A DNA stretch of 64,000 nt, taken from contig JADMKE010000003.1 in the NCBI GenBank assembly GCA_018780035.1, forward strand, positions 210,753 to 274,752, in the 5' to 3' direction. A model generated the notes under the pieces. The model was not told the origin of the DNA and made no database searches. It saw nothing but the letters and a program-made list of their open reading frames with translations. Shown here piece by piece: positions 3,473 through 63,285 of the stretch; within the stretch, counting starts at the first letter, position 1, and every line of letters begins with the position of its first letter. Origin of the DNA: Candidatus Sericytochromatia bacterium (GTDB lineage: Bacteria > Cyanobacteriota > Sericytochromatia > UBA7694). A program made the position numbers and the translations under genes.

Positions 3473-4639
3473 TTAAGCTGCTGGATTGGCCGGAGGAGGA
3501 GATGCGGGTGGTTGATTCCCTGGTTGATTTCCTGGTTGATTCCCTGGTTGATTTCCAGGTTGTGCCATGGGTGGTTGTCCTGGTTGCATCATGGGCCCGC
3601 AGCGGTGCTGACCCATGGCTGAACCAGCAGGCATCATGCCGGGCTGGCCGGGCATCATGCTCGGTGGCTGTGCAGGCTCAGAGGTTTGGGCAATCCGCAT
3701 CCCAGCTGCTGGTACGGGTGGCTGTGGCTCGGTTTGACCGGGTCTGGGTGGTTGGCCGGGTTGCATCATGCCAGGTTGACCGGGTTGGCAACCCACGGGA
3801 ATGCGGGGACAGGCGGGTGGCATAATCACTTTGCCTGTATCGGGTTCACCGGCTTTGATAATTTTAAGTGCGCCTTGTAAGGTGATTTCAAATTCGCCTT
3901 TTATCAGGGTGCGGCTTTCACCATTGGGTTTGGCGAAGTCAAGCGAACCATCGGCTTTGGCCACAACTTTGCCACAGGCCAAACCCATTTTTGCACCCGC
4001 GCGCTGAGGCGGCTGGGGAATAAAAAACTTATCTCCTTGCAAAACTTCTTTGGGTGTCTGCTTAAAATTGGGGCGTTCACCGGGTTTGAATTCGAAGCGT
4101 TGGATGGTCTGTTTGTTCACATCATGAACGCTGACTTCCCCTTCACGGTGTACAAATTGGGGAGCACGTTCATCAAATTGACCATCGCGGTTAAAGTCAA
4201 AACCAGCGACATTTTCCTGAAAAGCCAATTTGCCTTCAGCATCTTTGCTAAAACGGGAGACACCGCGCATCAACATGCGTCCGTTTTGTCTTTGAGCGGG
4301 ATCGATTGGCATAATCACAGGTTCTGGGGCATCTTTGTATTGAACTTCAATTTCTGATGCATCAGCGGGCAAATCACTGAGTGTCATTTCACCATTGGCA
4401 TCAACGCTGTAGGTGAGCGTTTTGCCATTGGCGGAAACCTTCTGAATATCTGCTGCGGTGACGGCAGCGGTAGAACCATCAATTTCACGGTTGAGGTTTA
4501 ATTGCAATGATTGCAAAGCGGCCTGAACAGAGGGGTTGTTGAGCAGGGTGCTGAGATCTCCACAGGCACTTAAACTCAGAGACAAAACGAGGCCCAGGCC
4601 TCCCAACATTTTACGGGTCGCCAACTTTGAGTACTTCAT
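3473..4639 (-). CDS. Lipoprotein with C-terminal Pro/Gln/Gly-rich low-complexity tail ((NQPG)n repeats)
   Basis: Signal peptide with lipobox (LSLSAC). The C-terminal 120 aa is QPG-rich and ends in NQPGNQPGNQPGNQP, encoded by a 12-bp DNA tandem repeat. Confidence 0.7.
   Translation of the reverse strand: MKYSKLATRKMLGGLGLVLSLSLSACGDLSTLLNNPSVQAALQSLQLNLNREIDGSTAAVTAADIQKVSANGKTLTYSVDANGEMTLSDLPADASEIEVQYKDAPEPVIMPIDPAQRQNGRMLMRGVSRFSKDAEGKLAFQENVAGFDFNRDGQFDERAPQFVHREGEVSVHDVNKQTIQRFEFKPGERPNFKQTPKEVLQGDKFFIPQPPQRAGAKMGLACGKVVAKADGSLDFAKPNGESRTLIKGEFEITLQGALKIIKAGEPDTGKVIMPPACPRIPVGCQPGQPGMMQPGQPPRPGQTEPQPPVPAAGMRIAQTSEPAQPPSMMPGQPGMMPAGSAMGQHRCGPMMQPGQPPMAQPGNQPGNQPGNQPGNQPPASPPPANPAA
3510..3563. 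repeat. 12-bp in-frame tandem repeat (ggttgattyccw) x ~4.5 inside the lipoprotein CDS
   Basis: Directly visible as ggttgattccct ggttgatttcct ggttgattccct ggttgatttcca ggttg. It encodes (NQPG)n on the minus strand. Confidence 0.8.
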
Positions 4640-47649: not shown

Positions 47650-49740
47650 ATGTCCCGTCCCCCCAAACGTCCACCGCTCAGACCCTTGGCTCAACCTGGC
47701 CCGAAAGAACCCTCGCAGCTGCGTAAACTGTTTTTGCGTGGCTTGGTGATCTTGCTCATTATTGGCATGGCTTTGGGGGTCGGGGGCGGTATTGCTTTGG
47801 CGGTGCTCTACAATCGCCTGCCTGATGTGCGCCAACTTGAAAAATTCACCTTGCCCCAGGCCAACGAAATTTATACCCGTTCTGGCCGCCTGCTGACGCG
47901 GATTTCTTCTCAGGGACGCTATGATCCGATTCCTCTGGAGCAAATCCCCAAACATATGCAAGATGCGATCACCTCTGCTGAAGATCGGCGTTTTTGGGAG
48001 CATACCGGCGTGGATTTACTCGGCTTGGCCCGTGCTGCATTTGTAAATATTCGCAAAGGTGGCACTGTGGGTGGGGCCAGTACCCTGACTCAGCAATTGA
48101 TTAAAAATCTGTTTTTGACCTCCGAACGCACAGCCAAACGCAAAATTGCCGAGGCCCTGCTGGCGATTCAGCTCGAAAGTAAATACTCCAAACCCCAGAT
48201 TTTGGAAATGTATCTCAATTTGGTCTTTCTTGGCCACAATGTCTATGGGGTTGAAGCCGCCTCTCAGGTCTATTTCGGCAAATCCGTGCGTCAGGTGACG
48301 ATTGCGGAGGCTGCTATGCTGGCGGGCATTATTCGCAGCCCTGAATACCTCTCGCCCTATCACCGCATGGAAGGGGCCAAAAAAGTTCAGGCGATTGTGC
48401 TCAATCAAATGGCCAAAGATCAACGCATTACCGAAAAACAAAAAGAAGAGGCACTCAAACAGCCGATCCATTTGGCGGGTCTGCGTACAAGTTATCCCCA
48501 CCCCTATTTTCTGGATTATGTGCTCTATTCACTCAGGGAAAAAGTGGGAGAAGGCCTGTTTCGCAGGGGTGGCTGGAAGGTCTATACCACGATTGATCCC
48601 GAGGCCCAGGCTTATGCTGAGCGTGTCTTGCGTGAGCAAGCGCCCCGGATAATGCGCTATGGTGCCAAACAGGCGGCTTTGGTCTCGTTGGACCCCCGTA
48701 CCGGTTTTATTCACGCCATGGTGGGTGGGGTCGATTATTCCAAAAGTCAGTTTAATCGCGCTTTTCAGGCCCAACGCCAGGTGGGCTCAACCTTTAAACC
48801 CTTTGTCTATTTAAGTGCCTTTGAACAGGGCAAAGATCTTAAATCGACCCTTCAAGATGGCCCTGTCAGCTTTGGCGGCTACCGCCCCCGCAATTGGGAT
48901 CGCCGCTACCACGGCCAAGTGAACCTTTTGCAGGCCCTGACGATGTCGATGAATATTCCCACCGTCAAATTGGCCAATGAATTGGGGATGGATCGGGTGA
49001 TTGATGTTGCCCGCCGGGCAGGGGTGAGCAGTGAGATCGCCAACGATCTGACCTCAGCTTTGGGATCTTCAGAAATGAACTTGCTTGAATTGACTGCGGC
49101 TTATGGCAGCTTTGCCAACGGCGGAATGCGTGTGCAGCCCACTGCTATTGCCAAGGTTGTAGACGTCGAAGGCAACGTGCTGTTTGATTATTACCCACCC
49201 CAACAACGCGTCTTTCCTTTGGCTGCGGTTAGCCAACTCAATATTGCACTGCAAAACGTGGTCAATAAAGGCACGGGCACGGGCGCCAATCTTGGCCGTC
49301 CGGCCGCGGGCAAAACAGGTACCACAGATCAGAGTTATGATACTTGGTTTGTGGGATATGTGCCCCAATTGGTGACAGGGGTCTGGGCCGGTAACGATAC
49401 CCCCAGCGCAACCCGAGGTGGCGGAGGCTCTGTCTGTGCGCCTGTTTGGCGCCAATACATGCGTTTTGCAACCCGTGGCTTACCTGCCGAGGGCTTTGAA
49501 GTGGTCCAACCCGAAAGCTCAGCCTCTCCCAGCAGCAGCGATGCCTCGGCTTCGCCCAGCCCGACTCCGACGGGACCTGCCATTGAAATTTCGGAAATTC
49601 CCCCGCAAACGCCCCCCCCAGTGGAGAGCACTCCCAGCCCTGCACCCACCCCTGAGGTCACTGAACCGCCTGCCGAAGAGACGCCCACCCCCATTGAAGA
49701 GACACCTGTGGAGCAACCCAGCGAAGAGCCCATGCTCTAA
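47650..49740 (+). CDS. mrcA: Class A penicillin-binding protein 1A (glycosyltransferase + transpeptidase) with Pro/Glu/Thr-rich C-terminal tail
   Basis: GT51 motif EDRRFWEH. Transpeptidase motifs STFKP, SMN and KTGTT. Confidence 0.9.
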   Translation: MSRPPKRPPLRPLAQPGPKEPSQLRKLFLRGLVILLIIGMALGVGGGIALAVLYNRLPDVRQLEKFTLPQANEIYTRSGRLLTRISSQGRYDPIPLEQIPKHMQDAITSAEDRRFWEHTGVDLLGLARAAFVNIRKGGTVGGASTLTQQLIKNLFLTSERTAKRKIAEALLAIQLESKYSKPQILEMYLNLVFLGHNVYGVEAASQVYFGKSVRQVTIAEAAMLAGIIRSPEYLSPYHRMEGAKKVQAIVLNQMAKDQRITEKQKEEALKQPIHLAGLRTSYPHPYFLDYVLYSLREKVGEGLFRRGGWKVYTTIDPEAQAYAERVLREQAPRIMRYGAKQAALVSLDPRTGFIHAMVGGVDYSKSQFNRAFQAQRQVGSTFKPFVYLSAFEQGKDLKSTLQDGPVSFGGYRPRNWDRRYHGQVNLLQALTMSMNIPTVKLANELGMDRVIDVARRAGVSSEIANDLTSALGSSEMNLLELTAAYGSFANGGMRVQPTAIAKVVDVEGNVLFDYYPPQQRVFPLAAVSQLNIALQNVVNKGTGTGANLGRPAAGKTGTTDQSYDTWFVGYVPQLVTGVWAGNDTPSATRGGGGSVCAPVWRQYMRFATRGLPAEGFEVVQPESSASPSSSDASASPSPTPTGPAIEISEIPPQTPPPVESTPSPAPTPEVTEPPAEETPTPIEETPVEQPSEEPML

Positions 49741-49795
49741 AACTGAACGATTTTCAGATCTTGTTCGCTGCACATAAAAAGGACTAAATAGCACA

Positions 49796-49824
49796 AAAGC
49801 ACCCTTTTCAATGGGTGCTTTTAT
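49796..49824 (+). terminator. Rho-independent terminator after mrcA
   Basis: AAGCACCC-ttttcaat-GGGTGCTT is a perfect 8-bp stem followed by TTAT. Confidence 0.6.
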
Positions 49825-49937
49825 ACTTAGAAACGGAACAATAGAAATCGAAACGAGTCGGAGGTAAAAACTTGGAAGCTAAAACATTTGGAAACTAAAA
49901 CATTTGGAAACGAATTCGAAACTAAATTTTTTAGAAT

Positions 49938-50105
49938 TAAACGCCTGGAGCTTGCAGAGTCTTCCTTTCTAAAGGGGTTTCAAAGACCTTGGGAACAAAA
50001 CGCTTGGAACTTACAGTGTCTTCCTTTCTAAAAGGATTTCAAAGACCTTGGGAACAAAACGCTTGGAGCTTACAGAGTCTTCCTTTCTGAAAAGGGTTCA
50101 ATGAG
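49938..50105. repeat. Tandem direct repeat, 59-60 bp unit x ~2.8, in convergent intergenic region
   Basis: The unit aaacgcYtggaRcttRcagWgtcttcctttctaaaRggRtttcaaagaccttgggaaca occurs twice fully and a third time partially. Short 16-bp repeats (ctaaaacatttggaaa x2) lie just upstream at 49877-49910. Confidence 0.85.
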
Positions 50106-50293
50106 AACAAAAACTATCTTGCCAAAATCATTCAATAACCTACCTGAGTACGAAGATTGTTAGATATTTTTCTGCTTGGATTTTTGTGCTTTTTGCACAA
50201 TGCATCAGGCACTCAAGTACAATAACCAATCCGTTTTACAGGAATATATCAGTCAGGTTAAGCTCGGGATAATCTTGGCACAAAAGCTCGAAA

Positions 50294-51172
50294 TTAAGCC
50301 CCAAAATTGCATTTGCCCATTTCTTGGAGGCAATTGAACTCCATATTTTTCCCGGCCTGCAGAGACTCTGCGCGATTTTTAAGGGATTGAATTTCAAGCG
50401 GGCTCAAGCCTTTTGCCTTTAAAAACAGGTTTAATTCGCTCAATACTTGGCTTTGGGGCCGACAAAATGAGCGGGTTACCAAAATATCTTCAAGCAGTTC
50501 GCTGCGCAAGGACTTCAGTTCAGATGCAAAGAGTGGGGCCCATTGTTGCAGGCGCAATTGCTCTTGCCAAAGTTGCAGATGTAAACCACTGCCCAAATGG
50601 GTGCAACCGCCATAATCCCAGGTTTGGGCTGACCACTGTGGCCAATTGGTCGAATACTCACCCCAGGCCTTTTGTAGCAGGGCCATCAGCTGATCGTCGC
50701 TTGTTTCGGGGGTGAGTTTTGCCAATTTGGCAAATGTCGGGTAATGCAATGCCAGGATTAATTCGGTGCCTTCGGCCACCAATCGCGGCTTTAAACCGGG
50801 TGTAAGGGGCTCCAACCAGCTAAAATCGAGCTGTTTGCTCAACGGCCTGTTCCAAGCTGCTTGATGCAATTGACTCAAAGGCGGGGAGAGCTTGGGGCTC
50901 AGGTTGCGGGCAGATTGCAGGGATTTGTACCAATCGTCTTGGGTTTTGACTGCTTGAAACTGCTTGCGATAGCTTAGTAGCTCTGAATAAGCGATTGAAC
51001 CGACTATCTTTTTGAGTTTGTCGTCAGCCTCTAAAGGGGGATTGTTGCCCCAGGCCCAAGCAGAAAAAGTGGCGCCGAGACCCATCAGTCCCCAACAGCT
51101 CAAACCGAGTGTCAAACCTACCAAACCCACTGCGGGTCGAGCATGAGCCCGCAGCTTGATTCGGAATTCCAT
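50294..51172 (-). CDS. Hypothetical membrane-anchored periplasmic protein
   Basis: N-terminal TM/signal anchor. It lies 3 nt downstream of the transporter gene stop. Confidence 0.5.
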   Translation of the reverse strand: MEFRIKLRAHARPAVGLVGLTLGLSCWGLMGLGATFSAWAWGNNPPLEADDKLKKIVGSIAYSELLSYRKQFQAVKTQDDWYKSLQSARNLSPKLSPPLSQLHQAAWNRPLSKQLDFSWLEPLTPGLKPRLVAEGTELILALHYPTFAKLAKLTPETSDDQLMALLQKAWGEYSTNWPQWSAQTWDYGGCTHLGSGLHLQLWQEQLRLQQWAPLFASELKSLRSELLEDILVTRSFCRPQSQVLSELNLFLKAKGLSPLEIQSLKNRAESLQAGKNMEFNCLQEMGKCNFGA

Positions 51173-51175
51173 CCT

Positions 51176-52489
51176 TTAGGCTCCTCCTGCGGTTTTCTGT
51201 TCAGGCAAACGCCCTTCCAAACGACTGACCACCACCACAGCGGTAATATCACCAGTGACGTTCAGAACTGTGCGACACATATCCAAGAGGCGATCGACGC
51301 CATAGATAATGGCAATGCTCTCACCGGGCACGCCGAGCGAGATCAGAATGCTGACAATTAAAGGCAGCGAGCCTCCGGGCACGCCCGCTGTGCCCACTCC
51401 TGCCAAAATGGAGAGGAAGACCACCAATATCTGTTGCATCAAGTTGAGTTCCACCCCAAAACACTGGGCCAAGAAGAGCAAGGTAATGCCTTCAAACAGG
51501 GCTGTGCCATTCTGATTGGCGGTGCTGCCAACGGTCAAAACAAAGCGCGAAATATCTGAGGGCATGTGCAGCTCGTCTTGGGTCACACGCAGGGCAGTGG
51601 GCAAAGTGGCATTGCTGGAACTGGTTGAAAAGGCTGTCAGCATTACTTCGCGGATCGCCTTAAAAAAGACCTTGGGCGAAAAGCCTGCCAATTTGAGAAT
51701 GGCTGAATAGACAATAAATTGCTGGATCGCTAAAGCTGCCAGCACCACCAGCACGTAATTAAGCACCAGGTGTAAAATCGCAAAACCCGTATTGGCAACC
51801 AAAATAAACAAAAGCGCAGCCACCCCAAAAGGCGCCAGGGACATGCCAAAGCCAATCCCTTTCATCACAATTTCATAGACCCCTTCGAGAAAGGCTTTGA
51901 CTGGAGCCACTTTTTCGGGATCGGAGGCTGAGAGTGCCAGGCCCAGCACCACCGCAAAGAACATTACCGCCAGCAGGCCACCACCGGTATAGGTGGGATC
52001 GAAGGCCCTTGCCATGTCTTCGACCGGGTTTTTGGGAATCAGCGAAACCAGCAATTCACTCACGGTGCGGTCGGGAATATCTGCTGCTTTGGCCTGTAAA
52101 CCTGCTGCAGAGTCAGAAAATTTCTCAATTAAATATTGACGATCAGCGGCTTTGATTCCTTTGGCTGGTTGAACCAGATTAAACAAAGTCAAGCCTACAA
52201 TCACCGATATGCCCGAAGCCACCAGGGTATAGACCAATGTTTTGAGTCCAATCCTGCCAATTTTTTTCAAATCGCCAAGTTCAGCCACCCCCAGAATCAA
52301 GGCCGAAAGCAAGAGAGGAATAACCAACATAAAGATCATGCGCAAAAACAGATCGCCGATCGGCTTGATCCATTTAATGAGTTCAGCTACCGTTTCGGGG
52401 GAAAGGCCAAGCAGGTGTACCAGCGCACCGCCGAGTATCCCCACAATCATGCCAATAAAAATCCGGGTATGCAGGGGAATTGATTTCAT
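51176..52489 (-). CDS. Dicarboxylate/amino acid:cation symporter (DAACS, GltP/DctA-like)
   Basis: 437 aa with 8-10 TM segments and hairpin-loop regions, typical of the sodium:dicarboxylate symporter family. Confidence 0.8.
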   Translation of the reverse strand: MKSIPLHTRIFIGMIVGILGGALVHLLGLSPETVAELIKWIKPIGDLFLRMIFMLVIPLLLSALILGVAELGDLKKIGRIGLKTLVYTLVASGISVIVGLTLFNLVQPAKGIKAADRQYLIEKFSDSAAGLQAKAADIPDRTVSELLVSLIPKNPVEDMARAFDPTYTGGGLLAVMFFAVVLGLALSASDPEKVAPVKAFLEGVYEIVMKGIGFGMSLAPFGVAALLFILVANTGFAILHLVLNYVLVVLAALAIQQFIVYSAILKLAGFSPKVFFKAIREVMLTAFSTSSSNATLPTALRVTQDELHMPSDISRFVLTVGSTANQNGTALFEGITLLFLAQCFGVELNLMQQILVVFLSILAGVGTAGVPGGSLPLIVSILISLGVPGESIAIIYGVDRLLDMCRTVLNVTGDITAVVVVSRLEGRLPEQKTAGGA

Positions 52490-53554: not shown

Positions 53555-54736
53555 CTAGCGAACGTGCCAAAGAACCTTTAAAAATTCATCCCAATGGGTG
53601 CGTTGAGCAAAGACACTCTGCAGATAGTCAACGCGATCGGGATTGTCGGGTGCCAAAACTGAAATGGAGATTCCATTGGCCTCGGGATAATCAAACCGGT
53701 GCCAAGCGTGTAACAGGCTGGCCTGAGCAGTGGCTTCAACCTGGGCAGAGGTTTCTCGAATCTTGGCATCGGGCAGATTGAGTTTGAAGAGTTGGGCCAG
53801 ATGAATCAGATCTTTTTCGTCTTCAGCTTCTTCAAAATGCTGGGCTTGTTTCAAAGCCCATAAGATTTCAGTCTTATACTTCGGCAAGCCAGACATCAGA
53901 GCGATACTCCACTGGTCGACAGCCTTCATCAGCGCTTCAAAACGCTCATCCAGCACCACTGCTGAGCCTGTCCGCTCTTGGTTATAGCTGGCACTTAAGG
54001 CACTGAGAATTGCCATTTCTTCAGCTTGGATTTGGGGTTTGGCATTCAGAACTTTTAAAATTCGGTCGTATTCCAGGCCATCCCAATCGACAAATTCTTG
54101 GGAGTGAACCAAGGTTTTGGCAAAGCCCTGCCAAAGCGCTTCCACTTCAATTGAGGCCATATTGCAGCCATCATAGCCCACCACATCCCACATGCCCAAT
54201 TGGGGCAGAATCGCTTGCAATTCGTGGGGGTCGAGGGCATCTTGGCTGCTGCTGTCTTCCATAATATACCCCGGATGCCAATTCCAGCCATGGCCCCAAA
54301 AATAAAGGGCATAATGTTCAGCCGGATGGTTTTTACGCGCCCAAGTGACAAATTCAAGCAGGGTACGCGGATCGCCGAGGTTGCGCTCCCCCCAATTGGC
54401 CAAAGCCTGGATGGGAGTGGCCTTTAAACCAGGTAAGACCTCAAACAAGAGGGTCTCGCTCCACGTTGGGTTGGGGGCCCGATCCGCCAAGGCCACGACT
54501 TTGACCCGGCCATTGGAACCAGGGACTGCAAGCTCGTTCTCGAGATCTTTGACGATGTATTCATCCAGATCATTGTCGCCAGACATATACAGCAATACAG
54601 TCCAGGCAGCTTTGGGGGACCCGGTATTTTCTGAGGAAGGTGGCTGAGCCAAAGCTGGGCAGATACTTAAACACATGCAGTAGAGAAAAAGGACTGCGCT
54701 CCCAAATAACGGTAATTTTATGCTGTTGCGGGTCAT
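53555..54736 (-). CDS. Secreted clostripain-like cysteine peptidase (family C11)
   Basis: Signal peptide. His in YFWGHGWNWHPGY and Cys in VGYDGCNMASIE. The ATG overlaps the NRPS-PKS stop (TGATG). Confidence 0.65.
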   Translation of the reverse strand: MTRNSIKLPLFGSAVLFLYCMCLSICPALAQPPSSENTGSPKAAWTVLLYMSGDNDLDEYIVKDLENELAVPGSNGRVKVVALADRAPNPTWSETLLFEVLPGLKATPIQALANWGERNLGDPRTLLEFVTWARKNHPAEHYALYFWGHGWNWHPGYIMEDSSSQDALDPHELQAILPQLGMWDVVGYDGCNMASIEVEALWQGFAKTLVHSQEFVDWDGLEYDRILKVLNAKPQIQAEEMAILSALSASYNQERTGSAVVLDERFEALMKAVDQWSIALMSGLPKYKTEILWALKQAQHFEEAEDEKDLIHLAQLFKLNLPDAKIRETSAQVEATAQASLLHAWHRFDYPEANGISISVLAPDNPDRVDYLQSVFAQRTHWDEFLKVLWHVR

Positions 54737-57700
54737 CAATCAAGCCCAGATCCCTTCACGGGATTTTGCAGACTTCCACACAAACGGGCCAAGTCCATTG
54801 CTCCCTGACCTTCGAGCATAGAGTAGTGGTCGCCGGGCACCGTCAGCAATGTCAGCGGAGCCAAATAATCCCCCCAGCCCTTGCCTGGTCGGGAATCTGT
54901 CTGTGCCAAACCGGCTTCGGCCACGACCAAAGTGGCTGGCAAGTGAAGTGCTGTCGGTTTAAAGGTTCTAGCGGCGTGTAAATTGGCCTCAAAGACAGCA
55001 TAAAGTAATTCGCGCGTCTGTTTCCTGCTTGCTTGCCTGTTTTCCTGCCTGCTTTCAGGTCTATTTATTTGAGTGCTAGCAGATATGCTAGCATCGGCGC
55101 TAGCATGAATGATTTCTTCAGATAATCCCAACTTTTGCATCTCCAGATCAAAACGCATGCGCACCAGGGATTCTGCATGCACCCGACCCGGTGGGGGCAG
55201 GGGCAGGTCTATCAAGACCAAATGAGAGACAGCGCGGCCGCGTGCCAAGGCCTGACGTGCCATTTCGAATGCCACCAAGGCCCCAAACGACCAACCAGCG
55301 AGCAATAAAGGCCCCTCGGGTTGGACGTGCATGACTAAGTCCAAATAGGCGGCGGCCATGGCTTCCAAGCTCAAATGGGGACTCTGGCCCGTCAGACCTT
55401 GGGATTGCAGGGCAAAAAATGGACCCGATAAGTGGCGGGCCAGAGTTTGGAAGGGAAAAACAGTTCCCGAAATGGCATGAACACAGAAGAGGGTTTGTCC
55501 TGTGCCCTCACGACGCAGAGGCACCAGCAGTGACGGCACCCGTTCATTTTGCAAGGTTTCTGCCAATGAGGCCACCGTCGAACCCTGAAAGAGCAAAGCG
55601 GGAGAAACAGGCCTCTTTAGCGACTCCGCCAGACGTTCTCGCACCTGCAATGCGAGCAAGGAGTCGCCGCCGAGTTGCTGCCAACTCTCTTCTCTGCCTA
55701 TATTTGCGACGCCCAGGGCCTCACCCCAGATTTTTGCGATCTCTGACTCCAGGGGGCTTTGAGGCAAGTCTTCCGAAGGGATTTCACGGGCTTGAAGCAG
55801 GGGATGCGTGCCAGCAAGCGAAGTTTGCAAGTGGGATTTCGCTGTACTCAAGTATTGGCGGCTGAGACGAAGTAAATCAGTGGGTTTGAGGGGGCTAACG
55901 GCCAGATTTGGGTGTTTGAGGTTGTAAATCCAACTCAAACTGGCTTTGCCACTTTCCCGGTCGATGCCCTGTGCCAATAGCGCTGTCTGCAACTGTCTCA
56001 TGTGGTGAGGCAAAGTTGCCACTGCTTGCTTGGCCATGCCTCCCTCTTTCCAGGCTCCCCAGGCGATACTTTGGACAGGCAAACCCGCTTGCCAATTCGC
56101 CCCTGCCAAGGCGTTTAAAGCTGCGTTGGCAGCTGTATAGGCCCATTGACCAGGCTGACCGCTGAAACTGCTCAGGGCTGAACAGAAGAGAATCAAGCGG
56201 GGAGTCAGTTTTGATGTTTGCAAAGCCTGCAGCAGGTGTTTGGCCCCCAGCCATTTGGCAAAGACGGGCCAATCTTGGAGCCAATTTTGCAGCCCATCAG
56301 GGGACGTTTCTATCTCAGCCAAACTCTCCAATAGCCAATGCTGATCAGGGCTGCCTCCAGCGTGGAGCACCCCTGTCAGTTCTCCGGTTTGCGCTTGAAT
56401 TGCTGCCAGGGCCCGATCCCAACTCTGCCTGTCGGCCATATCCCCAGCAATCCAATTCACACTTGCCGCTCTTTCAAAAAGGGTTGCCAGATCCACTGGC
56501 GCCTCTCGACCCAAGAAAAACAGCTTTGATCCAGCTGGCAGGGCCTGCGCCAATTGGCCTCCAATTTCGCCACTCCCACCCGTGATCAAATACGTGCCCA
56601 TAGGCAAAGGCTCTGTTCTAACAGGCCCGTGTACAGGCTTGGGCAAAACTTGTGGCAAAATTTGCGGCAAAAGCTGGGGTTCCCAGAGCCAGCGGTTACG
56701 CAAAGCCAGTTCGGCATGAGCTTCATCTAACAGGGTTTTGAGTAATTCCTCAGACAGGGGCAATGAACCATCGGACTCCAGCCAGAGGCAATGCACAGCA
56801 GGCCTTTCACTCGGTAAAACTCTGGCAAGACCTAACAATAACGCCAAATCTGGGGCCAGATTCTGCTCTGCACCCGTTACAACCTGTACCGCTGGCATCA
56901 AAAAACAAAGCTGTGTCAAGCCGAGTTTTAACAGCTCAGCCAAACTTGCCAGGGCCCATTTGAGCAATGCGTCAGGGGGAGCGTCTGTTTGCCAGTTGCG
57001 GCAGTCAAACACAACTTTGATATGTTTCTCCTCGCCGAGTTTGAACGCTTGACCGGCAATCAGCCAAATCAAATTTTCGGTCTCGCGGGCGGCACTGTGG
57101 GGTATATCTGGAGCGGCTAAAGGTACTTTCCGCCGTTGCCATTCCAGAGAATAGAACCAGTTTTCCAAGTTCTGGCGCACAGGCAGTGCCCCAGCACCCT
57201 CTGACTCCGTGGGGCTGAACCAATAATTTTCTCTTTCAAAGGGTGTGCCGGGCAGGACCCGTTTTGCATAGCGCTGCTCAAACAGGACCTTGCGCTCCAG
57301 ACGAAAGCCCCTTTGCCACAGCTGTCCCAGGCAATTTAAAAAAGTGGTTCGGCTCTCAGAGGCTTCTGTGCCCAAGCCCCAAAGAGGTGTATATTCGCCC
57401 TTTCCACGCAATAAAGCACTCAGAGCCCGGCCAGGTCCCGTTTCGAGGGGCAAAAAAGTTTCCTGCTGATCAGTGAAAAGCAATTGATTTAAACTGCGCT
57501 TAAAGGGCACAGGTTCGAGGGTTTGGGCCCGCCAATAGTCTGGGTCGCTCAATTCTTTGACACTCAAAACTTGGCTACGCAGTGCAGAATACACCTGCCA
57601 TGTCCCTTTTTGCCAGGGTTGGCTGGAACAAAGTTGGCTGAGTTCGTCCAGAATCGGCTCCAGCAGCGGGTGATGCACAGCATGGGGAATGGGTAATTCA

Positions 57701-60700
57701 ATCCAACGCAATCCGGCCAAATGCAAAGCATCCCGCAGGGGATCGCGGGCAGCCAGTGGGCCAGCGACCGTGACCTGTTCTTCTGCATTGTCAGCGGCAA
57801 TACAAACCCCATCAGGCAAAATTGCCTTAACCCGTTCACAGGCGCCCTGTACGGCCCATGTAAAACCTGGCACGCTAGCAAAAAGCTCTCCCCGGCGGCA
57901 AACCAGTTCCAACATTTCAGGCAGGGCCAAATGGCCGCCCAGACACAATGCTGCATATTCACCAAAACTGTGACCGAGTAGCAGTGCAGGCTGTAACCCC
58001 AATGCCAACCAGGTCTGTCCCAGGGCATATGAAAGCAAGAAGATCAGTGGTTGCATCAAACGCGGATCTGCCAATTCGGCAGCGGAAAGCCCGCCCGAAG
58101 TTGATCCATACAGGGCGATTTTCAATCGCTCCGCCAATTCAAATCGGTGGGTCTGAATCAGTGCCAGGCAGGTTTCGATGCTTTGGGCGAAAACTGACAG
58201 CGATGCCATTTTCTCTGCCAATCCAGACACCTGACTGCCCAGACCAGGCAAAAGCCAAAGTAAAGGGGGGGGGAACTCCGAAGATTGGCCTTTTACCAAA
58301 CCCTGAACGGGCGCATTCGCCAGACTTTGAAGCAATTTCTGACCGAGATCTTCGCTGTCGTGTGCAGTGAAAGCCAGGCGCCAGGGAAAAGACTGCCTCC
58401 CGAGAGCAAGGTTTAAAGCCATTTCAGATATATTGATTGGCATTTGTTGAGACGCTAACCAGTCGATCCATCTATTTTGCAATTGCTGCAAAGCCCGCTC
58501 TGAGCGGGCAGAAAATAGAAAGAGCTCCGGTTGAGGTATGTAAGTCGTTTTTTCAGATTCAGACATGTGCTCCGCCCCTTGGGCCTCAGGTGCACCCGCT
58601 AAAATGGCATGGGCGTTGGTTCCACCTATCCCAAAGCTGCTGACTGCAGCGCAAAGCGGGCCTGATGTTTGAGATAAATCCTCAGCTAACCTAGCGGGAT
58701 AGACAGGTGCGTGCTGCCAGCTGATGCGCGGACTGGGCTGGGTAAATCCGGGTTGGGGTGGAATTTTTTTGTGCAAAAGCACCAGCAGCGCCTTGATCAG
58801 GCCCGCCACCCCTGCAGCGGCATCAAGATGGCCCAGGTTCGCTTTAAGCGAGCCGATGGCGGCATGGGGCGTGGCTTGCCCCTGCCTTTCTGTCCAGGCC
58901 TCGGTCAAGGCCTGAATTTCAACACTGTCCCCCAAAGCGGTGCCCGTGCCGTGGGCTTCGAGATAGCGAATCTGTGTGGGCCGGATGCCCGAACGGGCCA
59001 AGGCTTTGCGCAGCACCGCGACTTGACCTGCAATTCCAGGCGCAGTGAAACCCAGTTTTTGTTTGCCATCGTTGTTGATGGCCGAACTGAGGATTTGTCC
59101 CAAAATGAGATCACCGTCAGCCTGGGCTTGGGCCAAGGGTTTGAGCACCACCAGCGCCACGCCACTGCCACCGACGATTCCTGTGGCATCGGCTTCAAAG
59201 GGGCGACAGGCCCCATCAGCAGAATAAATCCCACCAGGCAAGTGAAGATAGCCTTGGGGATCGGGATCGAGGCTCACACCGCCTGCCAGGGCCAGTTCAC
59301 ACTCGCCCCTGCGCAGGCTTTCACAGGCCAAATGAACAGCCACCAAGGAGGTCGAACAGGCAGTCTGTACTGCCAGAGCAGGGCCGGTCAAATTGAGGTG
59401 GTAAGCCACCCGTGTGGCGAGATAATCTTTGTCATTGGCCAGCAGGGCCTGCATGGGATTAACGGCCTCTGTCAGATTGGCGCCCTGAATATTATGCCCC
59501 AGATGCATTAACAAATAGCGGCTGATCCCTGACCCCGCGAAGACCCCAAATGGCCGGGACTCTGAACAATCGCCATAACCGGCCTGTTCCAAGGCCTGCC
59601 AAGCAGTTTCCAGCATCAGGCGCTGCTGGGGATCCAATAGTCGGGCTTCGGCAGCAGAAAGCTGAAAGAGTTCGCGGTCAAAAGCTGCGATATCTGGGAG
59701 TACCCCAGTGATGGGCACATAGTGGGGATGATCGAGCTGCAGTTCAGACACCCCTTGGGACAATAGTTCTTCTCGGCTGAAGTGTTTTAAGCCGGTCTCT
59801 CCTTTGCAGAGCAATTCCCACAAGGCTTCCACTGAATCTGCCCCTGGAAAGCGACCAACCATCCCGATCACAGCAATTGGGGCATCTGATGCTAATGTGC
59901 TGGGCTTGGCCAGGGGCTGCGATGCTGCAGCGGTTTCTGTCGCCATATCCGGTTCTTGCAATTTCTGGGCCAATTGGCGCAGGGTTGGAGCTGCAAAGAG
60001 ATCCATCAATGTGAGAGGCATGCCAAATTCAGCCTCAATGCGGTATTGAGCTTCGACCAAAAGCAGTGAATGCAAGCCCTGGTCCATAAAATTTTGCTCG
60101 GGGTCGAGAGGCAAACCGCCGTTGAGATCTTGCAAGAGCTGATGCAGGCGCTTTTCGATTTGATTCAAACTGGCTGAACGTGTTTCAGCCTGGGGCAGCG
60201 GCAGTGCTTTGAGATCAAGTTTGCCATTTAAGGTCAGGGGCAGCGCAGGAACCCAGACAAAATGGTCTGGAATCCAAGCTGGGGGCAAAATAGCCTGCAG
60301 GGCCTGTCGCAAATCTGCCACTGTGGGCTTGGGGACTTCGTTCTCACCGATCAGATAGGCGATCAAAACATGCTGGCCCGGTCTCAGCTCGCGCAAGGCC
60401 ACGCGGGCATCTATGACCGCAGGCAGTTGTAATAGGGCGGCTTCAATTTCTGCCGCTTCCAAACGATAACCGCGAATTTTAAGCTGGGCATCGCGCCGGG
60501 CCAGGTAATGAATTCGGCCATCAAGATCTTGACGGGCATAATCCCCGCTAAAATAAACCCGCCCCAAGAACGGGTGCATTGAAAAGCGCTGCTTGGTCAA
60601 TTTGGGGTTATTAAAATAGCCCCGGGCCAGCCCTGCTCCAGTGACTGTGATTTCACCTGCAACACCTACAGGCACAGGACATAGATCTTTGCCGAGTAGG

Positions 60701-63285
60701 GCCAATCCCAGATCTTGCAAGGGGTGGCCAAGGGGGCTTTGTTTTCCAGCCGCCTGAACCATTTCTGGCAAGATCCGTTCAAAGGTCACAAAGACCGTGG
60801 TCTCGGTAATCCCATAGCTGTTATACACAGCGACCTGCTCACCAAAACAGGCAAACCAAGGCTTTAAACTCCCCAACTCCAATTTTTCACCGCTTAAGAT
60901 CAGCCAGCGCAAGGGTGGCAAAGGGGGAGCTGTTTGCAATGTGCTCTGCAAAACACCCTGCAAGGCGCGCAAAGCCGAAGGAGTCAGATTGAGGACTGTC
61001 ACAGGGGTTTCGATCAGGGTTTGCCAAAATTGTCTGCTGTCGCGGGCCAAAAGGCGGGGGATCAGCAAAAGTTGGGCCCCCGCATAAAAGGCCCCCCAAA
61101 TCTCCCAAACGGAATAATCAAAGGCCAGTGAGTGAAAGAGCACCCAGGTATCTTCGGGGCTGAGATCCAATTCGCGGGCCGCAGCGGGGAAGAGGCGCGC
61201 CACTTGAGCATGGGTAATTTCAACCCCGTTGGGCTCGCCGGTGCTGCCAGAGGTGAAGATCATGTATGCCAAGTCATCGGGGGAGATCGGCAAGTCCAGG
61301 TTGATTTCGTCGCCCATTTCGACTGGCGCTTGAAACAGGGCATGGGGATCGAGGCAATTCCAGGCCTGTTTCTGCGGGCTATCTGGCAATGTCTGTTGCA
61401 AAGTTGCTGCTGCCAATAAAAAATGGGGCTGGGCAAAGTTTAAGATTTTCGCTGCGCGCAGGGGGGGCTGGTCTTGGTCGATAGGCAGATAAAGTGCCCC
61501 TGCTTTGAGTATCGCCAAGAGACAAATCAGGGCCTCTGGGCCCACTTCAAGCCACACCGCAGCCCGCATACCCGGCTCCAGTCCCTGGCGGCGCAAGACT
61601 CTCGCCAACAGATTTGACCGCCGATTCAACTCACCATAGCTCATGGCTTGCCCTTGCCAGAGCAAGGCTGGGCGCTCAGGGGCCTGCGCTGCCTGGCGCT
61701 CCACAAATTGGTGAATCAACCCTTCAATGGGAATCTCAGCCAAGGGCGTGCCTGCTTTTAAGTTTAAGCTCTGTGCCTCGGGGAGCAAAAGTCGAATTTC
61801 GCTCAGGGGCTGCTCGGGCTGGGCCAATAATCGGGACAAGAGGCTGAGATAATCCCTCAAGATCTGTCTGAGCATGTCAGGCCCGAGTTGGGCCAAAGCA
61901 CTCGACAATCGCACCCGCAGTCGGCCAGGCTCCAAAGTCAGGGTCAAGGGAAAAGGGGGCGGTTGCTGGGGCAGATCTTTCCACTGCACCTCAAAATCCA
62001 GCGGGGGTATATTGAGTGGGCTGTTCTGAAAGACAAAATAGATTTCAGGCAGCGGGTGCTCACTTTTAGGCAAAGCTGCCACTGCTTTTTCGAAAGGCAA
62101 ATCCTGCCAGAGCAAATGCACTTGAAATTGCCTCGCATGTAGACCACAGTTTTGGGCAAAGTTCAATTCAGGCATCACTTCCAGGGGCAGCAGAAGGGTG
62201 TTGATCAGACAGCCGATTAGGTTTTCCAAACGCAGATCCGACCGCCCCGAAACCGGTGTGCCGATGATCATCCGCTCTTGAATGCCATAGCGCGAGAGCA
62301 AGACCGTCCAGGCTGTTAAACAAATCTGAAAAGGCGTCAGGGCTGTGGCTTTGCCAAAAGCCACAATCTGATCCCAGAGTGTTTCTGGCAGGTCTAATTC
62401 CACTTCCGCTGGGCCAGATTCACGCGGACAGGTTTCTCCTGGCAAGTCCAACCCCGTTGGAAACCCAGCCAAAGCTTGGCGATAAAAGGCCAGAGCCTGC
62501 TCAGACCAGGGAGTTTCATTGAATGCCTGCTGCGCCAAATCCAAGCCCGTAATCACCGGCAATGGCAGCTCAATTCCGTGATAAGCGGCCAGCAGTTCCC
62601 GCAACAGCACCCCTGTGGACCAGCCATCGGAAATCAGGTGGTGCAGTGACCAGGCCAAGATTCCCCTCTGCTCACCGAGAGGCCACCAACCCATACGCAT
62701 GAGCGGACCCTGTGACAGGTCAAAGGGCTGAGCACACCAGCTTTTGATTTCAGTGAGCGCTTGTGTCTCTGCGCTTTGGGCGTTATTTTGGGGCATAACC
62801 TCCAGTTGCAGCGCGGATTTGGGCAGGATCTCTTGGTAAGCTTTGCCTGCTATTTCGGGAAAAACCGTACGCAGCGCACTTTGGCGTTGGCCCAAAGTCT
62901 GTAAAGCCACTTGCAAGCGTTGTAAATCTAAAGGGCCAGTTATTTGACAGGCCCCGCTTAAATTGAGCAGATCGCTGTTGGGGTGCAATTTTTGCAGAAA
63001 CCACATGCGGCTTTGCGGGGGCGTCAGTGGGCCCGTTGTTTGGGAAATATTGGCTTGGCTGTTGTTGGTCTGTAAGGGGGGGCGTTGTTCCAATTGCAAC
63101 AGGGCCAATAGCTGTGTTTTTAAGCCACTTAAGGCTTCTCGCAGCGATTCGGAAATGGCTCCTTTGGGTGCGCTTAAACTGAGCTGCCCGTCTTTGATTC
63201 CCAGCAAAGCCCCGCTTTGGCGCAATTCAAGCAGCAGAGCGCTGGCCTCTAACCAGGCTGAATAATGACGTGGAAGCTCAGGCAT
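54736..63285 (-). CDS. Hybrid NRPS-PKS megasynthase, one NRPS module + one PKS module: C-A-T-KS-AT-KR-ACP-TE
   Basis: C domain HHLISDGWS. A domain FTSGSTGEPNG, NSYGITETT, YFSGDYARQDLDGRIHYLARRDAQLKIRGYRLE. T domain FMDQGLHSL. KS domain TACSTS, EAHGTGT, KANLGHL. AT domain GHSFGEYAA with a HAVH (HAFH-like) specificity region. KR domain TGGSGEIG...YTAANAALNAL. ACP LGGDSL. TE domain GWSFG...GDHYSML. Confidence 0.93.
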   Translation of the reverse strand: MPELPRHYSAWLEASALLLELRQSGALLGIKDGQLSLSAPKGAISESLREALSGLKTQLLALLQLEQRPPLQTNNSQANISQTTGPLTPPQSRMWFLQKLHPNSDLLNLSGACQITGPLDLQRLQVALQTLGQRQSALRTVFPEIAGKAYQEILPKSALQLEVMPQNNAQSAETQALTEIKSWCAQPFDLSQGPLMRMGWWPLGEQRGILAWSLHHLISDGWSTGVLLRELLAAYHGIELPLPVITGLDLAQQAFNETPWSEQALAFYRQALAGFPTGLDLPGETCPRESGPAEVELDLPETLWDQIVAFGKATALTPFQICLTAWTVLLSRYGIQERMIIGTPVSGRSDLRLENLIGCLINTLLLPLEVMPELNFAQNCGLHARQFQVHLLWQDLPFEKAVAALPKSEHPLPEIYFVFQNSPLNIPPLDFEVQWKDLPQQPPPFPLTLTLEPGRLRVRLSSALAQLGPDMLRQILRDYLSLLSRLLAQPEQPLSEIRLLLPEAQSLNLKAGTPLAEIPIEGLIHQFVERQAAQAPERPALLWQGQAMSYGELNRRSNLLARVLRRQGLEPGMRAAVWLEVGPEALICLLAILKAGALYLPIDQDQPPLRAAKILNFAQPHFLLAAATLQQTLPDSPQKQAWNCLDPHALFQAPVEMGDEINLDLPISPDDLAYMIFTSGSTGEPNGVEITHAQVARLFPAAARELDLSPEDTWVLFHSLAFDYSVWEIWGAFYAGAQLLLIPRLLARDSRQFWQTLIETPVTVLNLTPSALRALQGVLQSTLQTAPPLPPLRWLILSGEKLELGSLKPWFACFGEQVAVYNSYGITETTVFVTFERILPEMVQAAGKQSPLGHPLQDLGLALLGKDLCPVPVGVAGEITVTGAGLARGYFNNPKLTKQRFSMHPFLGRVYFSGDYARQDLDGRIHYLARRDAQLKIRGYRLEAAEIEAALLQLPAVIDARVALRELRPGQHVLIAYLIGENEVPKPTVADLRQALQAILPPAWIPDHFVWVPALPLTLNGKLDLKALPLPQAETRSASLNQIEKRLHQLLQDLNGGLPLDPEQNFMDQGLHSLLLVEAQYRIEAEFGMPLTLMDLFAAPTLRQLAQKLQEPDMATETAAASQPLAKPSTLASDAPIAVIGMVGRFPGADSVEALWELLCKGETGLKHFSREELLSQGVSELQLDHPHYVPITGVLPDIAAFDRELFQLSAAEARLLDPQQRLMLETAWQALEQAGYGDCSESRPFGVFAGSGISRYLLMHLGHNIQGANLTEAVNPMQALLANDKDYLATRVAYHLNLTGPALAVQTACSTSLVAVHLACESLRRGECELALAGGVSLDPDPQGYLHLPGGIYSADGACRPFEADATGIVGGSGVALVVLKPLAQAQADGDLILGQILSSAINNDGKQKLGFTAPGIAGQVAVLRKALARSGIRPTQIRYLEAHGTGTALGDSVEIQALTEAWTERQGQATPHAAIGSLKANLGHLDAAAGVAGLIKALLVLLHKKIPPQPGFTQPSPRISWQHAPVYPARLAEDLSQTSGPLCAAVSSFGIGGTNAHAILAGAPEAQGAEHMSESEKTTYIPQPELFLFSARSERALQQLQNRWIDWLASQQMPINISEMALNLALGRQSFPWRLAFTAHDSEDLGQKLLQSLANAPVQGLVKGQSSEFPPPLLWLLPGLGSQVSGLAEKMASLSVFAQSIETCLALIQTHRFELAERLKIALYGSTSGGLSAAELADPRLMQPLIFLLSYALGQTWLALGLQPALLLGHSFGEYAALCLGGHLALPEMLELVCRRGELFASVPGFTWAVQGACERVKAILPDGVCIAADNAEEQVTVAGPLAARDPLRDALHLAGLRWIELPIPHAVHHPLLEPILDELSQLCSSQPWQKGTWQVYSALRSQVLSVKELSDPDYWRAQTLEPVPFKRSLNQLLFTDQQETFLPLETGPGRALSALLRGKGEYTPLWGLGTEASESRTTFLNCLGQLWQRGFRLERKVLFEQRYAKRVLPGTPFERENYWFSPTESEGAGALPVRQNLENWFYSLEWQRRKVPLAAPDIPHSAARETENLIWLIAGQAFKLGEEKHIKVVFDCRNWQTDAPPDALLKWALASLAELLKLGLTQLCFLMPAVQVVTGAEQNLAPDLALLLGLARVLPSERPAVHCLWLESDGSLPLSEELLKTLLDEAHAELALRNRWLWEPQLLPQILPQVLPKPVHGPVRTEPLPMGTYLITGGSGEIGGQLAQALPAGSKLFFLGREAPVDLATLFERAASVNWIAGDMADRQSWDRALAAIQAQTGELTGVLHAGGSPDQHWLLESLAEIETSPDGLQNWLQDWPVFAKWLGAKHLLQALQTSKLTPRLILFCSALSSFSGQPGQWAYTAANAALNALAGANWQAGLPVQSIAWGAWKEGGMAKQAVATLPHHMRQLQTALLAQGIDRESGKASLSWIYNLKHPNLAVSPLKPTDLLRLSRQYLSTAKSHLQTSLAGTHPLLQAREIPSEDLPQSPLESEIAKIWGEALGVANIGREESWQQLGGDSLLALQVRERLAESLKRPVSPALLFQGSTVASLAETLQNERVPSLLVPLRREGTGQTLFCVHAISGTVFPFQTLARHLSGPFFALQSQGLTGQSPHLSLEAMAAAYLDLVMHVQPEGPLLLAGWSFGALVAFEMARQALARGRAVSHLVLIDLPLPPPGRVHAESLVRMRFDLEMQKLGLSEEIIHASADASISASTQINRPESRQENRQASRKQTRELLYAVFEANLHAARTFKPTALHLPATLVVAEAGLAQTDSRPGKGWGDYLAPLTLLTVPGDHYSMLEGQGAMDLARLCGSLQNPVKGSGLD

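Follow-up and report, generated by a model that had tools for sequence, protein, structure and literature searches.

CsrB, RsmZ and RsmY are non-coding RNAs that end at an intrinsic terminator and repeat a short GGA purine motif, the number of which differs between species. Small RNAs (sRNAs) derived from 3′ untranslated regions (3′UTRs), such as CpxQ, SroC and DapZ, lie directly downstream of a same-strand operon, share its terminator, and may have an internal promoter of their own. Tandem modules are found in NsiR1 of heterocystous cyanobacteria (non-coding units of ~60 nt), in the ToxI RNA of type III toxin-antitoxin systems (head-to-tail repeats of tens of nt, variable in copy number) and in sopC of the F plasmid (40-60 bp per repeat, with a short inverted repeat in each). 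We describe here a locus that resembles each of these in part. It lies in a stretch of 64,000 nt, called the window below, from a Candidatus Sericytochromatia bacterium (contig JADMKE010000003.1, positions 210,753 to 274,752), and fills most of the 553-bp gap (49741-50293) between two convergent genes, one encoding PBP1A and the other an open reading frame (ORF) of 292 aa. Sericytochromatia are uncultured, non-photosynthetic relatives of the cyanobacteria, known only from metagenome-assembled genomes (MAGs), and a full-text literature search returned nothing on their regulatory RNAs. The gap holds a conserved core block of 166 nt, an array of 59-nt units and a run of 16-nt repeats. Our best reading is that these elements belong to a lineage-specific non-coding RNA, or long 3′UTR, made from the minus strand and without Rfam counterpart.

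The units of the array carry AAGGAAG and the core block carries CAGG(U/A)AG. L015 and L021, two of the related loci compared with the window (designated throughout by L-numbers, such as L004 or L007), have CAGGAAG, in agreement with the CsrB consensus CAGGA(U/C/A)G. Unlike the CsrB/Rsm RNAs, however, the locus has no sequence or covariance-model match to these families, sets its motif in long exact 59-nt tandem units instead of short dispersed hairpins, and places GGA in a predicted stem and not in a loop, in folds that have no covariation support. Nor do the CsrB/Rsm sRNAs have any counterpart of its large, non-repetitive and conserved 5′ block. Like the 3′UTR-derived sRNAs, it stands directly behind a same-strand operon whose only terminator it shares, and it may also have an internal promoter, but it is far longer (~300-500 nt), contains tandem repeats, and persists in L021 without the 292-aa gene. 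NsiR1 comes from the same wider phylum, yet its units come with a promoter and a terminator each; the units here have neither, and no Rfam match was found. The array differs from ToxI in standing after its neighbour gene and not before it, this neighbour being a secreted protein and not an endoribonuclease. It differs from sopC in being chromosomal, in one to four copies, with no partition genes nearby and with conservation boundaries like those of a transcript. The 166-nt block recalls 6S RNA in its size and in its predicted rod shape, but no Rfam 6S model matches it, its distribution is narrow, and conserved repeats are attached to it. In short, the locus does not qualify for any of the named families that could be tested, and fits only the generic description of a lineage-specific bacterial non-coding RNA: purifying selection, a terminator and no coding signal. 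Judging from the sequence comparisons reported below, we put at roughly one in two the chance that a functional RNA is made from the minus strand of the locus and that the repeats are functional modules of it.

Conservation and selection at the locus

Related loci were gathered by scanning for the unit, and by collecting contigs that encode homologues of the two flanking proteins. The same locus was found in at least 9 lineages of Sericytochromatia/Blackallbacteria, always in the same gene order: M23 peptidase, GGDEF, PBP1A and then, in convergent orientation, the 292-aa gene (where present) and an SDF-family symporter. In L016 and L017, whose PBP1A is 62-67% identical, and in Blackallbacteria CG17 (L019 and L020), other genes follow PBP1A and no element is found there. 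A degenerate 23-mer of the unit, searched in one genome for each of 185,579 species, matched four contigs, all of them from Sericytochromatia/Blackallbacteria MAGs and all at this locus. The first-pass annotation, made from the window alone, had suggested a REP/BIME-type element among other possibilities. This was not supported, nor was a MITE, since neither the 64-kb window nor the 252 kb of examined loci contains a second copy, and the only genomic matches are at the syntenic locus.

The PBP1A gene served as a yardstick for neutral divergence. Between the window and L007, its codon positions 1, 2 and 3 are 98.8, 99.0 and 78.4% identical, respectively, and its four-fold degenerate sites retain 71.6% identity to the window in L007, 69.8% in L011 and 65.2% in L004. 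The window and L007 share ~97.5% identity over ~490 nt of the gap, repeats included. This conserved stretch runs from just after the stop codon of the 292-aa gene to the end of the terminator tail. Beyond that point, the 45 nt separating the terminator from the PBP1A stop are unalignable, both between the window and L007 and between the window and L011, and a further alignment shows the same loss of similarity. The collapse of similarity past the terminator tail places the conservation boundary where a minus-strand transcript would end.

Orthologous units of the array share 95-100% identity, unit 3 being the same at 59 of 59 positions in the window, L007 and L011, whereas paralogous units of one genome share 75-90%. 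Because orthologous units are more alike than paralogous ones, the array predates speciation, has not been homogenised, and each of its units has been kept. We conclude that these comparisons with neutral sites show the locus to be under purifying selection. The first-pass annotation had named confinement to a single locus without structure, or a recent local duplication, as observations that would speak against a functional element. The single locus and the lack of a significant fold were indeed found. A recent duplication was not, as the array is old and selected.

The 59-nt array and the 16-nt repeats

An unusually long non-coding gap between convergent genes, with a tandem array of 59, 60 and 49 bp units about 90% identical, had been noticed at the outset. 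The gap is 553 bp long and repeat-bearing as described. The array is real too (Tandem Repeats Finder, TRF: 49939-50098, 2.7 copies, 90% matches, no indels, score 269), but its period is exactly 59 and not 59/60/49. A separate repeat search gave three in-register 59-nt copies at 49934-50110, with identities to the first copy of 100, 86 and 75%. Sub-patterns of the unit occur two to three times in the gap and nowhere else in the 64 kb, for an expectation of 0.00 in shuffled sequences. The purine core of the unit, UUUAGAAAGGAAGAC on the minus strand, is invariant in nearly all of the 18 units tabulated from 8 lineages. Even the single-copy lineages L010, L015 and L021, with one degenerate unit each, retain GAAAGGA.

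Copy number was compared among relatives, as had been proposed, and was found to vary between 1 and 4 in whole 59-nt units (3 in the window, L007 and L011, 2 in L006, 4 in L005, 1 in L009). All species with two or more copies space them by exactly 59 nt, which means that whole units are gained or lost and that internal indels are not tolerated. The imperfect palindrome reported for each unit is present as well, GTCTT...AAGAC surrounding CCTT...AAGG, with 91% of the cells of the alignment able to pair.

The 16-bp direct repeats were recovered by TRF (Table 1). They belong to the segment between the array and the terminator (49831-49933), which is near-invariant in the window, L004, L006, L007 and L011, expanded or variant in L005 and L009, and absent in L010, L015 and L021. 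A minimal ORF, AUG UUU UAG, lies inside every 16-nt repeat and also persists in the divergent 16-mers found in L009 and L005.

Three Logan short-read contigs (L001, L002 and L003) end inside the 59-nt array, coming from both sides, and one MAG has a gap of 100 N at the array (L004 3706-3805), so that the array is a systematic assembly breakpoint. It is not an assembly artefact, since arrays of the same design are spanned in five independent assemblies (L005, L006, L007, L011 and L012).

The core block and its putative mini-ORF

The 166-nt block beside the array had not been flagged in the first-pass annotation, and is the most conserved thing in the region. Compared to the window, L004-L007 and L011 keep 98.8-100% identity in the block, for coding sequences that share 71-92%; the figures for the block are 95% in L009 and ~75%, with invariant islands, in L021 and L015. 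Taken across species whose coding sequences or neighbouring genes share 66-92%, the block is 95-100% identical. A hidden Markov model search found each locus to hold a single copy, and the 252 kb of examined loci to hold no other.

The two ends of the block can pair. On the minus strand, the arm-arm duplex has an energy of -25.8 kcal/mol, compared to -11.7±3.2 for shuffled sequences (0/500), and pairing is also significant in L010 (11/500) and L015 (3/500). In all five lineage types, this duplex is more stable on the minus than on the plus strand. When the arms are aligned, 89.8% of the cells pair, versus 24-57% with a slid partner; one compensatory pair is seen (G-U to U-A in L015), and three one-sided changes all yield G-U on the minus strand. 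The pairing counts and the compensatory pair are suggestive of an arm-arm helix, albeit not a proof of it. RNAalifold detected zero compensatory pairs in the block on either strand, because the close sequences are nearly identical. The apical hairpin keeps its position in L015 with a different sequence. Another helix, P2, situated just behind the putative start, seemed by eye to covary in L021, L009 and L015, and was rejected.

The 3′ side of the block contains a ribosome-binding site (RBS)-like sequence followed by a five-codon mini-ORF (Table 1). AGG(U/A)AGG and the AUG are invariant in 9 lineages, and the spacer between them varies in sequence while its length stays at 6-7 nt. Within the mini-ORF, changes are confined to UUG/CUG (synonymous), GCA/GUA (Ala/Val) and UAG/UAA. 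This pattern suggests that the mini-ORF is translated, and the complementary 5′ arm (50250-50279) could bury both the RBS-like site and the AUG.

Two further observations were made. Opposed pairs of sigma-70-like hexamers occupy 50184-50261 of the core block, namely TGCACA-18-TACAAT (plus strand), TTAACC-17-TAAAAY (minus strand) and TTTACA-18-TAARCT (plus strand); they are conserved because the whole block is. In L010 (6985-7011), a conserved hairpin, UUGUGCAAAAAGCACAA, is followed by an inserted run of seven U, and the terminator-like site thus created could give rise to a short RNA of ~55 nt; no such U run is present in the other lineages.

Terminator, strand and proposed transcript

The terminator that had been assigned to the PBP1A gene turned out to be a strong hairpin, with a stem AAAAGCACCC-loop-GGGUGCUUUU, that works in both directions, as both strands end in a U run. 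Its fold has 10 bp and -16.0 kcal/mol on the plus strand, and 15 bp and -23.6 kcal/mol (z -7.4) on the minus strand, two G-U pairs making it 7.6 kcal/mol more stable on the latter. The hairpin is kept in all lineages, with differing loop and upper-stem sequences. Its minus-strand tail, GGGUGCUUUUGU, is kept in every lineage, including L010 and L021, and takes the variant form UUUUGUUUUU in L015. A simple terminator scan missed this hairpin, probably by counting the U run into the stem.

Between 50293 and 49830, neither the scan nor inspection of the sequence revealed any terminator-like site on the minus strand. As the operon formed by the SDF symporter and the 292-aa gene has no terminator before the 49791-49826 hairpin, its transcript must cross the repeats. 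We propose that the terminator forms the 3′ end of a minus-strand non-coding transcript as well as that of the PBP1A mRNA. The minus strand is favoured for several reasons, among them the operon without other terminator, the stronger terminator, the stronger arm duplex, and the G-U-type changes. The element is not merely the 3′UTR of the 292-aa gene, since L021 keeps it without that gene.

Initiation inside the core block is also suggested. A promoter scan called TTAACC-17-TAAAAT on the minus strand in L010, L015 and L021, and TGnTATAYT was read by eye on the same strand of the block. Both forms of transcript, born at this promoter and by read-through, may exist.

A model for the proposed RNA and the points against it

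In the model that we favour, the unit would be a minus-strand RNA of ~0.3-0.5 kb, starting near 50282 just after the SDF-292aa operon, passing through the 166-nt core block, then the array of 59-nt units and the 16-nt repeats, and ending near 49786 at the terminator shared with PBP1A. It would arise by read-through from the operon, by initiation at a promoter within the core block, or by both routes. The ancestral RNA, similar to that of L010, L015 and L021, would have had one purine-rich GAAAGGA module between core and terminator. Tandem duplication would then have brought this module to 1-4 copies in the window clade, each copy being kept afterwards. The proposal of a small RNA gene family, made in the first-pass annotation, would survive in part: the array is probably RNA, but its units, which have no promoters or terminators of their own, would be modules of one larger unit.

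Such an RNA would act by sequence-specific recognition and not through a stable fold. The repeats would multiply a binding site, UUUAGAAAGGAAGAC, that resembles both a Shine-Dalgarno sequence and the CsrB-type A/CAGGAAG motif, and the partner might be the 3′ tail of 16S rRNA (in the 30S subunit) or a CsrA-like protein, copy number setting the titration capacity. The unit motif is complementary over 9 nt to a 16S tail of the form ...UCCUUUCUA. Paired core-block arms would bury the RBS-like site and the start of the five-codon ORF, suggesting regulated access of ribosomes. The sponge mechanism, considered alone, is a tentative idea, with odds well below those of a functional RNA in general. A fuller version is unlikely, and more so than the sponge alone: it supposes a class of RNAs engaging ribosomes or an RNA-binding protein, in which the core would gate the RBS and mini-ORF by pairing over a long range, and the array of UAGAAAGGAAG, near-perfect sites of the Shine-Dalgarno type, together with the AUG-UUU-UAG ORFs would form a tunable sponge for 30S subunits or a repressor, its capacity adjusted by gain or loss of whole units.

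Several observations weigh against the idea of a functional minus-strand RNA, or against parts of it. The unit hairpin has 0 covarying pairs, and the array folds no better than shuffled sequences on either strand (z +1.45 and +0.79). Fold z-scores of the core block range from -0.2 to -3.0 and are inconsistent between lineages. The arms offer a single compensatory pair as covariation support, and their pairing is not significant in L009 or L021. As to helix P2, its duplex is significant in L021 only, and its 3′ partners do not fall in homologous columns.

The promoter poses difficulties of its own. In the window clade, the best hexamer, TAAAAC, lacks the key final T; the alternative, an extended -10, overlaps the 5′ arm; and promoter-like hexamers are present on both strands of the AT-rich core block. 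An internal promoter excludes the 5′ arm from the transcript, while read-through includes it, so that the promoter and arm-pairing models conflict unless there are two transcript forms. As for the partners, tblastn searches for CsrA with the E. coli and B. subtilis proteins gave only noise in the 252 kb of examined loci, a result of little weight for the genome as a whole. Predicted folds place the GGA of each unit in a stem, where CsrB/RsmZ have it in a loop. Shine-Dalgarno use in the genes of the window is only moderate. Finally, the near-total conservation of 490 nt exceeds what a simple sponge needs.

Alternative explanations

The alternative that survives best, although we consider it unlikely, is that the region acts as DNA, as an operator, enhancer or centromere-like (sopC-like) set of sites for a regulator, nucleoid or partition protein, with no transcript needed. 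It accounts for a sequence conserved without detectable RNA fold, for the imperfect palindrome in each unit, and for the promoter-like hexamers on both strands. It also draws on YTTGGRA (plus strand), which recurs ~8 times, often 16 bp apart, on CAAGAT(T)A at both ends of the core block, and on the palindromic TTGTGC-N5-GCACAA. Yet conservation ends right after the terminator tail, as for a transcript end, and, for want of another terminator behind the operon, the region would be transcribed on the minus strand anyway. One strand is favoured by the pairing energies and by the wobble pairs. The spacings do not phase the sites on one face of the helix (59 bp is 5.6 turns, 16 bp is 1.5), and a promoter array placed between convergent gene ends would have nothing to act on. 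For the protein-binding array raised in the first-pass annotation, we favour binding at the RNA level.

Less probable still is a small RNA from the plus strand, transcribed from a promoter located beyond the PBP1A terminator or by polymerases that read through this terminator. The units would each expose CUUCCUUUCUAAA, an anti-Shine-Dalgarno mimic that pairs with target RBSs in the way of the C/U-rich seeds of RsaE and RNAIII. The unit motif CUUCCUUUCUA appears similar to the 16S rRNA tail, CCUCCUUUCUA; a good plus-strand -10 hexamer, TACAAT, is invariant in all lineages, and the terminator works both ways. However, no plus-strand terminator follows the array or the core, the only candidate (50358) lying inside the 292-aa gene and not being conserved in L006. 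No promoter is conserved in the stretch from the PBP1A terminator to the array, TAGAAT being lost in L009, and the hairpin and arm pairings are weaker on this strand.

The 166-nt block might be a divergent 6S-like RNA that binds RNA polymerase, the repeats being a 3′ trailer that is processed off. We find this quite improbable. The length of ~166 nt and the paired ends fit, the layout of closing stem, bubble and apical stem is the minimum free energy fold or close to it in the window as well as in L010 and L015, though not in L009 or L021, and a -10-like sequence is present in a bubble strand. However, the side of the bubble that carries this sequence, the 5′ one facing the apical loop, is opposite to that in E. 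coli 6S. Rfam 6S models are unmatched even at E<=10, the z-scores of the folds are weak and differ between lineages, 95-100% identity per orthologous unit would not be expected of a mere trailer, and the element is limited to one small clade while 6S RNA is near-universal.

A functionless slippage product, in which an AT-rich spacer underwent tandem duplication and the copies survived by chance or hitch-hiking, is very improbable. Copy number does vary between species, and the repeat is found at a single locus and has no fold, but orthologous units are 95-100% identical where neutral sites have diverged by ~30%, all similarity is lost in a neutral spacer 45 nt away, and the core motif is invariant in nearly all of the 18 units.

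A known class of repeats can hardly be credited, in spite of a 59-nt period within the CRISPR range, an AT-rich conserved block placed like a CRISPR leader and a palindrome in each unit: the lack of unique spacers in units conserved whole between species, as already recognised in the first-pass annotation, means that the array is not a CRISPR, dispersed copies of the REP/BIME or MITE kind were not found in the 252 kb of examined loci or in the scanned species genomes, a meaningful Rfam CRISPR repeat match is missing, the absence of a toxin gene downstream on either strand excludes a ToxI-like antitoxin, and units without promoters or terminators on either strand are not an NsiR1-like gene array.

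Searches for known families, coding sequences and partners

At the gathering score, Rfam found no family match in the whole window. At E<=10, pieces of 851, 201 and 401 nt gave chance-level matches only; one of the candidates, SAM-V, reached 18 bits for a threshold of 41, is not present in L015, and was rejected. No Csr/Rsm family matched at the gathering score or at E<=10, and the 6S models were likewise unmatched at E<=10 with the 201-nt and 401-nt queries. CRISPR-DR16 was a chance-level match (12.9 bits, E 3.8). CRISPR was in any case rejected on the units themselves, whole units being 75-90% alike within a genome and 95-100% between species, with no part that is spacer-like, and a scan of the six flanking ORFs, and of those six only, revealed no Cas domain. 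As for a toxin, the array is followed by the terminator and antisense PBP1A when read on the minus strand, and by the antisense of the 292-aa gene when read on the plus strand. A search for tRNA and tmRNA found none.

Small ORFs on either strand (Table 1) were rejected as coding sequences, as their changes are mostly non-synonymous or their frame is broken by indels. An origin or terminus of replication was also considered and rejected: reading the locus sequence by eye, we found no cluster of DnaA boxes and no parS-like or dif-like site at this point where genes converge. An origin from a mobile element was rejected for lack of similarity in 72,556 plasmids and 50,697 phage records, and metagenome scans with invariant 23-mers of the core block gave no match. 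The 292-aa neighbour was considered as an RNA-binding partner and discarded: its sequence includes a signal peptide and matches no family or PDB entry, and L021 retains the element without the gene.

Layout of the locus and neighbouring genes

Coordinates are given in Table 1. The GC content of the gap is 36-38%, compared to 52-54% in the flanking genes. The left neighbour matches the Pfam families Transgly (1.3e-64) and Transpeptidase (1.1e-35), and an identical protein in an NCBI Sericytochromatia MAG is annotated PBP1A. The symporter matches Pfam SDF (1.4e-107), and the 292-aa protein has no match in Pfam, NCBIfam or PDB. The latter evolves fast, with 48-83% identity where PBP1A has 77-92%, and its gene is missing in L021 (5420-5701) and truncated or frameshifted in L015 (6075-6421).

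Table 1. Features of the locus, in coordinates of the window
Feature	Position	Strand	Remarks
PBP1A gene	47650-49740	+	left convergent neighbour; 696-aa ORF; outside the element
Spacer, PBP1A stop to terminator	49741-49785	.	non-conserved; internal neutral control
Bidirectional intrinsic terminator	49786-49830	.	hairpin 49791-49826, A-tract on one side, T-tract on the other
Conserved GUUUC/UUCCAA-rich 3′ segment	49831-49933	-	includes the 16-nt tandem repeat
16-nt tandem repeat	49872-49911	-	GUUUCCAAAUGUUUUA (minus strand); TRF period 16, 2.5 copies, 95% matches
59-nt tandem array	49934-50110	-	three units, the promoter-proximal one partial; invariant core UUUAGAAAGGAAGAC in each unit
UUUAGAAAGGAAGAC cores	50089-50077, 50030-50018, 49971-49959	-	one per unit
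Core block	50113-50279	-	166 nt; near-invariant in the close clade; beside the array
Putative mini-ORF, five codons	50131-50114	-	AUG AUU UUG GCA AGA UAG; Met-Ile-Leu-Ala-Arg
Core-block 3′ arm	50146-50122	-	CAGG(U/A)AGGU...AUGAUUYUGG
RBS-like site	50146-50139	-	CAGGUAGG; followed by a spacer of 6-7 nt
Predicted hairpin in core block	50200-50184	-	UUGUGC-AAAAA-GCACAA
Promoter-like hexamers in core block	50261-50256, 50251-50243, 50238-50233	-	TTAACC, TGATATATT and TAAAAC, respectively
Core-block 5′ arm	50279-50250	-	GCCAAGAUUAU...ACCUGACUG
Upstream operon	50294-52489	-	same strand as the proposed RNA; SDF-family symporter and 292-aa protein
292-aa signal-peptide protein	50294-51172	-	ORF; N-terminal hydrophobic segment
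SDF-family symporter	51176-52489	-	
Small ORFs, rejected as coding		+ and -	45-47 aa, MHQALKYNN... and METKTFGN... (+); 29 aa, MVIVLECLMHC... (-); 28 aa, opposite strand

Farther upstream of the SDF operon, on the minus strand, are a hybrid non-ribosomal peptide synthetase/polyketide synthase gene of 2849 aa and then a Peptidase_C11 gene (53555-63285), an arrangement also kept in L008 and L011. Elsewhere in the window, a 12/24-nt tandem repeat, TGGTTGATTCCC, is present in 4.5 copies (3509-3586) inside a 388-aa ORF (3473-4639, minus strand), presumably as a short peptide repeat near its C-terminus.

Significance

The locus is a concrete candidate for a regulatory RNA in Sericytochromatia: ~0.5 kb remain near-unchanged while neighbouring synonymous sites have diverged by ~30%. 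As the array breaks short-read assemblies, such a locus is easily missed or split in MAGs. If it is the minus-strand RNA that we favour, tandem duplication would act as an evolutionary dial on a conserved RNA, set from 1 to 4 copies, and should the repeats be binding sites, copy number would provide a natural dose series for sponge function.

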